Shown one piece after another: positions 8,225 through 11,686 of a stretch of 24,000 nucleotides of DNA (within the stretch, counting starts at the first letter, position 1; every line of letters begins with the position of its first letter). The position numbers were made by a program, and so were the translations under genes. The DNA comes from Synechococcus sp. PCC 6312. Lineage in GTDB: Bacteria > Cyanobacteriota > Cyanobacteriia > Thermosynechococcales > Thermosynechococcaceae. Under the pieces are notes generated by a model. That model made no database searches and was not told the origin of the DNA. It saw only the letters and a program-made list of their open reading frames with translations. The stretch is taken from NCBI RefSeq assembly GCF_000316685.1, contig NC_019680.1, positions 2,837,407 to 2,861,406 of the forward strand, read 5' to 3'.

Positions 8225-8694
8225 ACATCCTAGCCGAAGGACAATAAAAAACTCTGGGTGTTAGCCAGAGCTTGGTTTTGGTTAGGAACCTCATCGCAGC
8301 CTATCCGAAGGTTAACCAAAAACCCCCACCATTTCTGATGAGGGCTTTTGATTGTCCATAACCTTGCCTGTAAGCACCTCATCCGAAGGAAAAGAAAAAA
8401 CCCTCATTATTCAATGAGGGAATCTTCCGTGTGTAGAGTTTGGTTTTATGACATCCTAGCCGAAGGACAATAAAAAAACCTCACCATTTCTGGCGAGGCT
8501 GGCCACCAAATGTATTCAGTTGTTGCACGACATTTTGTTACAACACAGTTTTTTTCTCCCTTCGATACAGCATTTGCACCAATCGCACTGAATTATTTTT
8601 GATACACCCCCACCGAAGGACAATAAAAAACCCCCATCGTTTGATGGAGGATTTTGTGTAGAGTTCTGGTTTTCTTCACCCGTTACCGCAGGAC
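8225..8694 (-). repeat. Tandem array of five to six ORF-less 'hairpin + T-run + ATTGTCCTTCGG' junction units
   Basis: On the plus strand, CCGAAGGAC (or CCGAAGGTT / CCGAAGGAA / CCGCAGGAC) occurs at 8234, 8305, 8383, 8460, 8613 and 8686. Each of the first five is followed by AATAAAAAA and a different hairpin (for example CCCTCATT-ATTC-AATGAGGG at 8401-8420). Confidence 0.8.
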
Positions 8695-8808
8695 ATGATT
8701 ATTTTTTACCCTTTTTTATACATTTCACCTGAGACTCCTGATCCGTTTGGAAGCCCTGTCTCTTCAGAACAGGGAGGAAAAACGAACAGCGACTTTAGTC
8801 GCCTACAT

Positions 8809-10086
8809 TTAGAAGACATAGGCATAACCGTCTTTTTTGTGCATGGCTTTGCAGTATTTGTGGCTGATACCTGCCACTCTTCCAGTTGCCGTGGCTATGT
8901 CAAAACTGCCAGAGGCTCGACAAAGAACCCGACCCACATAGAAGCCGATTTTCTTGCCTGCCGTAACGGTCGCTCTGACAATATCGCCAGTTTGAAAGCC
9001 TTTATGAATCTGTACTCTGGACTTATGGCGAGTCGAAAAACCAAACTTGTCAGTCCCACACATCTGCCGTGTGCCGTGACCTTTGGCGGTAATGAGCAAC
9101 GGCTTTGAAGTCAGGACTTTGAGCGCATCAACCTGACCCACACAAGCGGCATCCAACCAATGAGCTTTGGGCAGGTCTAAGCGGGTGCGGTTGAATTTAG
9201 TTTGTCCACCCGTCCCTGTCGTGAGTGGCAACCCCGTCGCTTTCAGTGCATTGAATAACGCCCATCGGGTAGAGTTGACTGCTGCTGCATCCTTGAGAGG
9301 GGCTTTAGCCTTTCTCAGAATCCGTTGTAGTAACTCAGGCTTACCGAATAGGAAGTCTCGAATGTCCTGATTTCCCTTGCTTTGGTTACAGGCATGACAA
9401 GCCATTGTGAGGTTAGAAACTCGGTCAGTTCCGCCTCTCGACCTGGGGTGAATATGCTCTACTTCTAAAGGGACATCTTTAGTTCCACAGTAAGTACATT
9501 TTCTGCCCCACTTTTCTAGTAGATACTCTCTGACTTCGTAGCCTTGTAATTCCCCTTGTTGGTACTCAATGCCTGAGATTTCAGGATTTTGTAACTTCTG
9601 TAGGTCAAACCGTACCAACTCTTGAGCGATACTGCCAAGGGGAGCTAGATTTCTGAGCCGATTTACCCAGGTCAGCACCGTATCAACTCGATGTTTCAGG
9701 CTAGGAGCAAGCCAACCATCAGGGCGATTACGATTTAGAAAACGGGGCTGACGATAACGGGTTTTCCGATTTCGCCTCCCACGCCGTAATTGACGACGAG
9801 ACAGCAAGGCATCTTTAATCTGTTGCCCCCGGTGCTGCAATTCGGCTCCAAAGATGATTTTGTTGCCTTGTTTAATTGCAATTCCAGTAACTTTAGAACC
9901 GGGGTCTAATTTGAGTTCTAAGTCTTGCACGGGGACATCAGGATGAGCTTCTTTCAAGATGAGGGTAAATGGAAAACGACGATATACTGCCGCTTTTCCT
10001 TGGTTGAGTAGATGACGAGCCTTCCCAGGATGAACGGGATCAAGCGGTCGTTTTTGGGTATCGAGAACAAAGATAAAATTGGACAT
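8809..10086 (-). CDS. iscB: IscB RNA-guided nuclease (OMEGA system; RuvC-HNH-RuvC with an N-terminal PLMP domain), 425 aa
   Basis: PLMP-type N-terminus VLDTQKRPLDPVHPGKARHLL. RuvC-I LKLDPGSKVTGIAI. Arg-rich bridge helix RRQLRRGRRNRKTRYRQPRFLNR. HNH CTYCG…EVEHIHPRSRGG…CHACNQSKGN. RuvC-III HWLDAACVG. ATG at 10086 with a GGAG SD; the track's GTG at 10155 lies in the omega-RNA region. Confidence 0.93.
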   Translation of the reverse strand: MSNFIFVLDTQKRPLDPVHPGKARHLLNQGKAAVYRRFPFTLILKEAHPDVPVQDLELKLDPGSKVTGIAIKQGNKIIFGAELQHRGQQIKDALLSRRQLRRGRRNRKTRYRQPRFLNRNRPDGWLAPSLKHRVDTVLTWVNRLRNLAPLGSIAQELVRFDLQKLQNPEISGIEYQQGELQGYEVREYLLEKWGRKCTYCGTKDVPLEVEHIHPRSRGGTDRVSNLTMACHACNQSKGNQDIRDFLFGKPELLQRILRKAKAPLKDAAAVNSTRWALFNALKATGLPLTTGTGGQTKFNRTRLDLPKAHWLDAACVGQVDALKVLTSKPLLITAKGHGTRQMCGTDKFGFSTRHKSRVQIHKGFQTGDIVRATVTAGKKIGFYVGRVLCRASGSFDIATATGRVAGISHKYCKAMHKKDGYAYVF

Positions 10087-10340
10087 TGAAAGTCTCCGTA
10101 AAACGGGTAATGTGTTCCTCGCCAATGTTTTTAAGGCTTGTTTGGCTAACGACACTGCTTTACCCCTCGTAAGGCTGTTTAATCGCTAACGACAGAGCTA
10201 CAAACTGGAAAGCATTTGTAGGTGTCATGACCTTAAAAACGTAGTCAGTCAAGACTTAGGCTGGTCAACTAACTGAAGCTAGAGGCATGAAGCCCCATTA
10301 CTTCAGTGCGGGGTGCTGACTCAGACTGAAAGACCGTAGC
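10087..10340 (-). ncRNA. Putative omega-RNA (HEARO-type) scaffold of the IscB element; 5' end and guide not resolved
   Basis: Position only. IscB omega-RNAs are encoded directly 5' of, and overlapping, the iscB start. The region is ORF-poor with local hairpins (for example CTTCAGT…ACTGAAG at about 10272-10310). I could not verify the consensus structure by eye. Confidence 0.55.
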
Positions 10341-10422
10341 TCTACGCCTTTTCCCAGGTAAAGTAGTAGCCATTTTCTTCAATGATTTTTAATATTTCTG
10401 ACTGTTTCATTTGGGTTACTCC

Positions 10423-10578
10423 TTAGCGATTGATTTCTTTCCAGGCTTGTTCTGCTTCTTTTTTGGTTTTGTAGAAACCGTAAAAGCAACTGCATACCAG
10501 GAAGCACCATTTCCCAATGTCTTTATGGGTTAGGCTGGCAAAGCGTTCTACATCGGCTTGGGTCAGTTGGAATATCAT
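10423..10578 (-). CDS. Candidate 51-aa hypothetical protein (below the ORF-track cutoff)
   Basis: Hand translation: MIFQLTQADVERFASLTHKDIGKWCFLVCSCFYGFYKTKKEAEQAWKEINR*. The junction motif CCGAAGGAC (10606) lies upstream. An AAGGAG follows its stop, ahead of a further 22-codon ORF (10342-10410). Confidence 0.4.
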   Translation of the reverse strand: MIFQLTQADVERFASLTHKDIGKWCFLVCSCFYGFYKTKKEAEQAWKEINR

Positions 10579-10625
10579 TTTATTTTTGGGTTTTAGAGCA
10601 TTTTTCCGAAGGACTTTTTGGGTTT

Positions 10626-10658
10626 TGTTCTAGGGGTGAGAGTGCTACCCCTAGAACA
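10626..10658. repeat. Perfect 12-bp-arm palindrome TGTTCTAGGGGT-N9-ACCCCTAGAACA
   Basis: Read directly from the sequence. Lies between the 10423-10578 and 10665-10997 ORFs. Confidence 0.9.
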
Positions 10659-10664
10659 GTTTGG

Positions 10665-10997
10665 TTAACTGGTGTAACGTTCAAATTCTTCAGCAATATC
10701 TTCAGCTTCTAGCTGAGATTCAATGATCTGGACTTTTTTGTTTGTGATCAGGACGTACATTCCGAGAGAGTCTTGGGGCAGTTTCAGCACTTCGATGACA
10801 TTGTGGGTGATCTGGCCAATCCAGTAGTAGTTGTCTGATTTTTCCCAGATTTGTGACAGGAAGTGTTTTTCGGCTTCATCTGGGTTGTCGAAGATGTTGG
10901 TTATCACTCCCTCGATCAGTGTTAGCCATTGCCCCTGGATTTCAGGATGGGTGCTTCTGGGGGAGGCTTGGCAGATTCCGGTATAGTTTTTGTCCAT
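10665..10997 (-). CDS. Hypothetical protein (110 aa)
   Basis: ORF track. AAGGA SD upstream. Bracketed by the two GTTCTAGGGGT palindromes. Confidence 0.75.
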   Translation of the reverse strand: MDKNYTGICQASPRSTHPEIQGQWLTLIEGVITNIFDNPDEAEKHFLSQIWEKSDNYYWIGQITHNVIEVLKLPQDSLGMYVLITNKKVQIIESQLEAEDIAEEFERYTS

Positions 10998-11040: not shown

Positions 11041-11074
11041 TTGTTCTAGGGGTGGGCCATTACCCCTAGAACAA
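11041..11074. repeat. Perfect 13-bp-arm palindrome TTGTTCTAGGGGT-N8-ACCCCTAGAACAA
   Basis: Read directly from the sequence. Followed on the plus strand by CTTTTTT. Confidence 0.9.
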
Positions 11075-11086
11075 CTTTTTTATGGG

Positions 11087-11686
11087 TCAGCGGTTCATTC
11101 TACGGAAGTCCCAAGGTTTTATCTGGTCTGACTTCCAGACACCAACGCCTTCTTTTCGGGCTTCTTGTTCGGCTTGATCAACTTTGGCAAAACTAGGGCA
11201 GTTATTAGCGAACTTGCGGTAAGCGTAGGCCATGCCTTTGCGGGTCATGGTTTCTTGGACAAGGGTATTGCCCGTCCAGACTTCAGCGACCTTACGGCCA
11301 TAGCGGTCAGTGTTGGTAATGCGAAGGTCAACACGGTAGTCAGCTTTTTTTAAGATATTGCGGAGTGTATTACGGGATGCTTCGCCCAAGGGTTGTTTAA
11401 GTTCTGGTGCGTCAATACAGGCGAAGCGGACTCGGATTTCTTCGTTGCCATTGGTGGCTCGGATGGTATCGCCATCATGGATAGAGCGTTGAACAACTTG
11501 CCATTCGGTTAGTCCAGTTCTGGTTTGGGTGGGTGTTCCGATTTCGTTGACAACGGCTTCACGTTCGGATGGACTAATCATACGTCCACTAGTTGTTCTT
11601 GGATTGAGGGCTTCAATCTCGGACATTGGGACAGCTTGCGATACGCATCCGGTTAGGAAAATTGCTAGGAGTGGCCAATAACGCAT
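11087..11686 (-). CDS. Secreted thermonuclease (staphylococcal nuclease/SNc fold) lipoprotein, 199 aa
   Basis: Lipobox LTGC in MRYWPLLAIFLTGCVSQ. SNase core …DGDTIRA…IRVRFACIDAPE…GEAS…RYGRKVAEVW…. Confidence 0.88.
   Translation of the reverse strand: MRYWPLLAIFLTGCVSQAVPMSEIEALNPRTTSGRMISPSEREAVVNEIGTPTQTRTGLTEWQVVQRSIHDGDTIRATNGNEEIRVRFACIDAPELKQPLGEASRNTLRNILKKADYRVDLRITNTDRYGRKVAEVWTGNTLVQETMTRKGMAYAYRKFANNCPSFAKVDQAEQEARKEGVGVWKSDQIKPWDFRRMNR

Follow-up and report, generated by a model that had tools for sequence, protein, structure and literature searches.

An apparently intact, single-copy IscB (OMEGA) element in a strain-specific, plasmid-like island of Synechococcus sp. PCC 6312

IscB is an RNA-guided DNA cutter and the ancestor of Cas9. 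The HEARO RNA, reportedly described by Weinberg et al. in 2009, is abundant in Arthrospira/Limnospira. Among cyanobacteria, families of ISC transposons occur in Microcystis, Coleofasciculus and Geitlerinema PCC 7105 (Kapitonov, Makarova & Koonin 2016; PMC4810608). The termini of these elements read 5'-GT... (GTCA), they carry subterminal hairpins, and they insert without target duplication at N/ATGA, GT/GA and GT/GG (junction at the slash; PMC4810608). Meers et al. 2023 described an omega-RNA upstream of iscB that has one transposon end as its limit, and a motif, read by both TnpA and IscB, that adjoins the opposite end (TTCAT for GstIscB, which is ATGAA in the sense of iscB). The same authors demonstrated that the donor joint left by excision is cut by IscB, and reported that tnpA is near only about 1.5% of iscB genes and that IscB elements are usually oriented like the upstream gene (bioRxiv 10.1101/2023.03.14.532601). 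In OgeuIscB, the catalytic residues are D61, E193, H340 and D343 of the RuvC domain and H247 of the HNH domain (Kato et al. 2022; PMC9640706).

In a 24,000-nucleotide window of the Synechococcus sp. PCC 6312 genome (the whole stretch of DNA that was analysed), we identified a locus that is, with high confidence, an intact non-autonomous ISC transposon, namely an IscB-only member of the IS200/IS605 superfamily, or OMEGA element. Elements of this kind are already well described, and the present one is ordinary and not novel; NCBI's own model would name the protein IscB. Judged from its sequence, the element is complete, real and single-copy, and it looks functional. Its features are listed in Table 1.

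The genome (3.72 Mb) was searched by DNA, with the HEARO model and with an IscB model, and contains one IscB and one HEARO. Three extra protein matches to IscB are HNH-only genes and were rejected. The initial annotation had recommended defining the ends from further genomic copies; because the source genome has one copy only, the ends were instead taken from relatives in other genomes (80 genome loci and 80 metagenome loci), and among these conserved ends were found. On the side of the omega-RNA, GT(C/A)A is where similarity sets in for all 160 related loci, and nothing is conserved before it. The two closest relatives (L118 and L119, both from the same metagenome and with 93-94% nucleotide identity) have an unrelated flank right up to GTCA. 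Since the similarity of the relatives starts at GTCA after unrelated flanks, the 5' boundary was placed at 10320, where the element begins with GTCAGC...; the opposite terminus, at 8729, reads ...TCTCAG.

Past the iscB stop codon, the relatives share the hairpin at 8803-8788, a second hairpin at 8774-8754 and about 25 nt more, and then GTGA or ATGA follows. Almost all of the related loci have one of these two motifs next to the element, and immediately past it the flanks diverge. Because conservation stops after (G/A)TGA, we take the element to span 8729-10320 and the motif to occupy 8728-8725, so that the motif-side junction reads ...TCTCAG/GTGAAATG. The initial annotation had placed the element at 8700-10345; its presence was confirmed, and its limits were corrected by the comparison with relatives. 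The presence of GTGA or ATGA beside the element agrees with the ISC target sites N/ATGA and GT/GA (PMC4810608), and no direct repeat flanks the element, which fits insertion without target duplication. The exact junction base is assigned provisionally, from comparing paralogous families and from the literature. When 25 related genomes were searched with a 5.7-kb region spanning the element and its two flanks, the region turned up in none of them, and no occupied/empty pair was obtained. The joined flanks had no match elsewhere in the source genome.

Table 1. Features of the IscB element (window coordinates) and of the neighboring IS605-type element (coordinates of locus L008 and of contig C1).
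Feature	Position	Strand	Remarks
Whole element	8729..10320	-	1,592 bp; limits from 160 related loci
Putative target site / target-adjacent motif (TAM), GTGA	8725..8728	-	just outside the element; next base A at 8724
iscB coding sequence	8809..10086	-	425 aa + stop
Ribosome-binding site GGAG	10094-10097	-	8-11 nt before the iscB ATG
Omega-RNA scaffold (HEARO RNA)	10107..10320	-	Rfam RF02033
Guide segment, CGGTCTTTCAGTCTGA	10321..10336	-	16 nt of flanking host DNA, immediately 5' of the scaffold
Subterminal hairpin, omega-RNA end, CCCCGCACTGAAGTAATGGGG then CTTC	10293..10313	-	read from the sequence
Terminator-like hairpin, GGCGACTAAAGTCGCT then T-rich run	8788..8803	-	terminator scan, DNA fold
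Subterminal hairpin, motif-proximal end, CCCTGTTCTGAAGAGACAGGG then CTTC	8754..8774	-	comparison with relatives, DNA fold
IS605-type element	L008:215-1900 (C1 about 2834540-2836230)	tnpB divergent from tnpA	about 1.2 kb before the start of the window
tnpB of IS605-type element	L008 279-1421	-	380 aa; the only TnpB of the genome
tnpA of IS605-type element	L008 1471-1872	divergent from tnpB	133 aa
Identical hairpins of IS605-type element, CCGTCCTGAAGGACGG	L008 241-256 and 1865-1880

The IscB element is intergenic, lies between a pair of small ORFs and an ORF-less terminator array (8225-8694), and has the orientation of the upstream genes; no ORF is disrupted where its flanks are joined. Two tiny minus-strand ORFs, at 10341-10409 (about 22 aa, MKQSEILKIIEENGYYFTWEKA) and 10423-10578 (51 aa), lie immediately upstream of the guide. 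Prior to insertion, these two ORFs would have had the terminator unit at 8631-8650 within about 100 nt downstream. Further upstream, long GTTCTAGGGG...CCCCTAGAAC palindromes at 10625-10659 and 11041-11074 flank a 110-aa ORF (10665-10997); the palindrome at 10625-10659 is not followed by a T run on the minus (coding) strand. The GTGA target might itself have supplied a start codon, as described elsewhere for ATGA sites, and this idea was rejected because only a 9-codon frame follows.

That the 425-aa ORF encodes an IscB, as initially annotated, is well supported. The protein matches the NCBIfam equivalog guided_IscB (NF040563) with 475 bits, against a cut-off of 175. Pfam RRXRR is matched over its full length (profile positions 1-174 of 174, E 2.8e-75), and Pfam HNH at ORF residues 220-263 (E 5.7e-13). 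The ATG at 10086 was chosen as the start because all homologues begin with MSNF...; a GTG-started ORF of 448 aa (8809..10155, minus strand) was rejected, as it overlaps the omega-RNA and as its extension is absent from every homologue. Among solved structures, the best matches are IscB complexes (TbaIscB 9k30, HfmIscB 9k2z, and OgeuIscB 7xht/7utn), with E values from 7e-45 to 3e-27.

A HMMER alignment to OgeuIscB, with the positions checked in the translation, places the RuvC catalytic residues at D61, E156, H309 and D312, and the HNH residue at H211. In OgeuIscB these correspond to D61, E193, H340 and D343, and to H247. The five residues are invariant in an alignment of 40 sequences (59-93% identity), as are the two Cys4 pairs, C197/C200 (CTYC, 197-200) and C230/C233 (CHAC, 230-233). 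The catalytic residues had been read as intact from the translation, and the alignment, which has no catalytic substitutions, bears this out; the motifs LKLDPGS, QELVRFD, EVEHIHP and HWLDAAC are all present. The alignment to OgeuIscB and the Pfam matches likewise reveal the split RuvC domain, the Arg-rich bridge helix (residues 97-121) and the HNH insert that had been proposed. The PLMP domain was also rightly named, in that the full-length match to RRXRR indicates a complete domain; however, the motif itself reads PLDP (residues 14-17).

The sequence models end near residue 340. An AlphaFold model of the protein has a mean pLDDT of 75, with low confidence for residues 336-358. In a Foldseek search of this predicted model against the PDB, IscB complexes were on top (E 4.5e-23). 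VIA-align aligned model residues 1-423 with an IscB chain (1-495) and residues 3-425 with IsrB, with Z scores of 19-20.6; Cas9 chains came next (Z 12-16). The C-terminal part of the predicted structure is assigned to the WED/TAM-interacting domain because the alignment of the model to IscB and IsrB chains (9liq 1-495, 8dmb 6-347) continues through residues 422-425 and reaches the C-termini of these chains. The TAM-interaction-like domain that had been suggested for this part of the protein is thus consistent with an end-to-end alignment to solved IscB chains. The dN/dS values for comparisons with the two closest relatives are 0.19-0.25, and the IscB protein has therefore been under selection in this lineage.

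The initial annotation had expected the omega-RNA in the approximately 250 nt of non-coding sequence upstream of iscB, and had the flank 5' of it as the guide. Both expectations agree with our results. The HEARO model RF02033 matches this stretch with 161.6 bits, about twice its gathering score of 83, over model positions 1-211; this is the sole Rfam match in the window. The match is on the same strand as iscB and stops 20 nt short of its ATG, and the scaffold probably extends on to about 10087. An alignment of 12 copies, this one and 11 relatives that share its subtype, shows two-sided changes that maintain 30 of the 60 predicted pairs; the copy in the window forms these pairs.

The guide (10336-10321) adjoins the scaffold, and L118 and L119 have unrelated sequence at its position. 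Its length of 16 nt was assumed from OgeuIscB (PMC9640706). The guide has no perfect match in the genome other than its own site, and, apart from its own flank, no near-match with fewer than two mismatches. With up to three mismatches allowed, the genome contains 29 matches (one of which is the element's own flank), compared to 38 for a reversed control; near-matches are thus not enriched relative to the control. The search for a sigma-70-like promoter upstream of the guide gave no candidate. The start of the scaffold, GTCAG (10316-10320), and the inferred motif, GTGAA (8724-8728), are set apart by essentially a single base, that at motif position 3. This near-identity may explain the early reading of the target as GT/GA.

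Subterminal hairpins are present at both ends of the element and are conserved in relatives with covarying stems; the element lacks inverted terminal repeats. The two hairpins are alike, with a TGAA loop and a CTTC tail. The one at the omega-RNA end doubles as the first stem-loop of the omega-RNA, with compensatory changes at columns 14/26 and 16/23, and from its sequence it is a candidate TnpA binding site. The stems of the third hairpin (8788-8803) covary in three related loci (L039, L065 and L073). GTTCGTTTTT comes directly after it, and the terminator scan rates the hairpin as an intrinsic terminator; relatives keep it with other stems (GGGGAC...GTCCCC and GGCGGT...ACCGCC). Because it is conserved in relatives despite these different stems, we consider it to be under structural selection, and its role may be to terminate iscB transcription and not to serve as a transposase site.

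By analogy with the IscB family, from which the steps of transcription, cutting and homing through repair are inferred, the element most probably functions as follows. Read-through from the small genes upstream on the same strand (10423-10578, 10665-10997 and 11087-11686) would yield a transcript that begins within the flank and runs on into the scaffold. The first approximately 16 nt of this RNA (CGGTCTTTCAGTCTGA) would be host flank, and the remainder would be scaffold. IscB together with the omega-RNA would then cut CGGTCTTTCAGTCTGA followed by GTGA(A). The occupied site would escape cutting because the guide match there precedes GTCAG and not GTGAA, and a cuttable target would be confined to sites lacking the element, either the donor joint after excision or an element-free copy of the locus. 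Excision would leave the scarless joint ...CAGTCTGA/GTGAAATG..., and a break that is repaired from a copy holding the element would lead to the element being kept or copied. Moves to new sites would need a Y1 transposase (TnpA) in trans.

No tnpA is present in the window. The initial annotation's statement that none is nearby is correct to that extent; however, an intact IS605-type tnpA-tnpB pair is located about 9.9 kb from iscB, past the left edge of the window. The genome contains two intact TnpA genes of the Y1 type (Y1_Tnp), at C1:2835825-2836181 and C1:1694517-1694870, and the first of these is the one in the IS605-type pair. An Rfam search of the neighboring IS605 locus gave no match. 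The hairpins of the IS605-type element have the C-TGAA-G loop that is common to both hairpins of the IscB element, whereas the stem differs (CCGTCC...GGACGG).

No close IscB was found in 40 related genomes; two of these are from the same genus and have no IscB. The only IscB-like matches among the 40 relatives are about 32% identical. The closest proteins (91-93% identity) come from a metagenome, and the named relatives, which are 77-84% identical and annotated as 'RNA-guided endonuclease IscB' or 'HEARO endonuclease', are from filamentous cyanobacteria. Similar elements are annotated on cyanobacterial plasmids, and related elements sit in unrelated contexts. Given that close IscB proteins are missing from the relatives and that the nearest kin are in a metagenome, in filamentous cyanobacteria and on plasmids, we conclude with little doubt that the element is a single, recent, horizontally acquired passenger in a strain-specific, plasmid-like island. 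Signs of past movement within the source genome (several copies or polymorphic sites) were not found, which concerns the activity of the element in this genome and leaves its classification untouched. In L118 (2211-2330) and L119 (2847-2960), an open 425-aa iscB and the omega-RNA are kept; similarity is lost 16 and 47 nt past the stop codon, respectively, and the motif-proximal hairpin end is missing or replaced. The loss of this end could be due to decay, recombination or an assembly artefact.

Such a passenger could be stranded in this genome, a reading that we consider possible, if rather doubtful. Its gene and RNA would be intact and no resident transposase would recognize its ends, so that it would never excise, its nuclease would never meet a target, and it would persist only through its recent arrival. 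This would fit the single copy, as well as the search with the 101-nt end region, which found only chance matches of 14-15 nt elsewhere in the genome. The sole IS605-type element has another hairpin stem and probably another target motif, and the two closest relatives are without the motif-proximal end while their iscB frame is still open, which also agrees with a stranded element. Here, however, both ends are complete, and the dN/dS values reflect selection on the protein. Furthermore, one Geobacillus TnpA mobilised five families that differ in their ends and motifs (bioRxiv 10.1101/2023.03.14.532601), the resident IS605 hairpins have the same loop as both hairpins of the IscB element, and homing between copies of the chromosome would need no TnpA at all (PMC13565253). 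We think it unlikely, on the other hand, that the element persists in one of two ways: without transposition, as a TnpA-independent gene drive that cuts element-free copies (among several copies of the chromosome, or during an earlier plasmid stage of the island) and spreads by repair, or through mobilisation by the neighboring IS605 TnpA, which is conceivable because all four hairpins have the C-TGAA-G loop. If persistence by homing were true, the retention of iscB and omega-RNA after the loss of one end in the two closest relatives would reflect selection on homing alone.

The passenger reading was one of two options given in the initial annotation, and it is the better one. The other, that IscB supplies the plasmid-like island as a whole with homing or retention functions, found no support in our analysis and is at odds with the mechanism; we consider it very improbable. 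The position of the element inside the island would be compatible with such a role, and TnpB can drive the spread of plasmids bearing IS605 (PMC11870625, as summarised in PMC13565253). Yet the guide and the motif are both inside the island, within 1.6 kb of one another, and the only target is the element-free form of the same site; if the island is lost, the target goes with it. Because guide and motif specify only the element's own insertion site inside the island, the nuclease cannot police island loss. The lack of a second perfect guide match in the genome, near-matches that are no more common than those of the control, and the unrelated contexts in which relatives of the element occur also argue against this role. 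Just as improbable, in our view, is the reading that the host has domesticated the nuclease, for defence or regulation, and that it no longer acts as part of a transposon. The purifying selection, and the survival of the gene in relatives that are without one of the transposon ends, would be expected for such an IscB-omega-RNA pair, but the present copy has kept its two ends along with the target motif, its guide is simply flank sequence without any other match, and no CRISPR array or cas genes are nearby. In addition, iscB was not found in the genomes of the same genus that were searched, which fits a recent acquisition better than a fixed host function.

Beyond annotation, the significance of these findings is small: the ends of the element, its guide and its likely motif (GTGA or GTGAA) are now placed. 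Interpretations of the surrounding arrays of small genes and terminators should leave out the stretch 8729-10320, which is a late insertion. For collections of IscB variants, the locus adds one compact (425 aa), apparently intact IscB with an inferred motif.

Among described systems, the cyanobacterial ISC transposons (ISC1-1_MA of Microcystis and ISC2 of Geitlerinema PCC 7105; PMC4810608) are similar to the present element in their size of about 1.6 kb, in having a single iscB and in the absence of a tnpA of their own. They also share the 5'-GTCA terminus, the imperfect subterminal hairpins at both ends, and insertion 5' of a 4-nt (A/G)TGA without target duplication. The PCC 7105 genome (L039) encodes a protein that is 79% identical. 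The families differ in that they have 2-10 copies, compared to one copy here, and the partner TnpB-only element with the same ends is missing from this genome.

In common with GstIscB (bioRxiv 10.1101/2023.03.14.532601), the element has an upstream omega-RNA bounded by the transposon end, a guide in the flank and the orientation of the upstream gene; TnpA would likewise act in trans. The motif is beside the opposite end in both, and reads ATGAA (TTCAT) for GstIscB, whereas GTGAA is inferred here, with G and not A as its first base. The two are distant in sequence. The RNA matches HEARO RF02033 over its full length, except that this subtype has an unpaired insert where the model has one small hairpin (positions approximately 31-42). 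The protein has 77-78% identity to Limnospira IscB proteins, and the HEARO is present in one copy and not in dozens, as in Arthrospira/Limnospira. OgeuIscB (7xht, 7utn and 8csz; PMC9640706) is more distant, with about 20-24% identity, 496 aa compared to 425 aa, PLMP in place of PLDP, and the motif NWRRNA/NNRR in place of the GTGA(A) inferred here. However, the order of PLMP, RuvC-I, bridge helix, RuvC-II, HNH, RuvC-III and WED/TI is the same in both proteins, the catalytic residues are the same, and the predicted model aligns with OgeuIscB from end to end, with a Z score of about 19-20.
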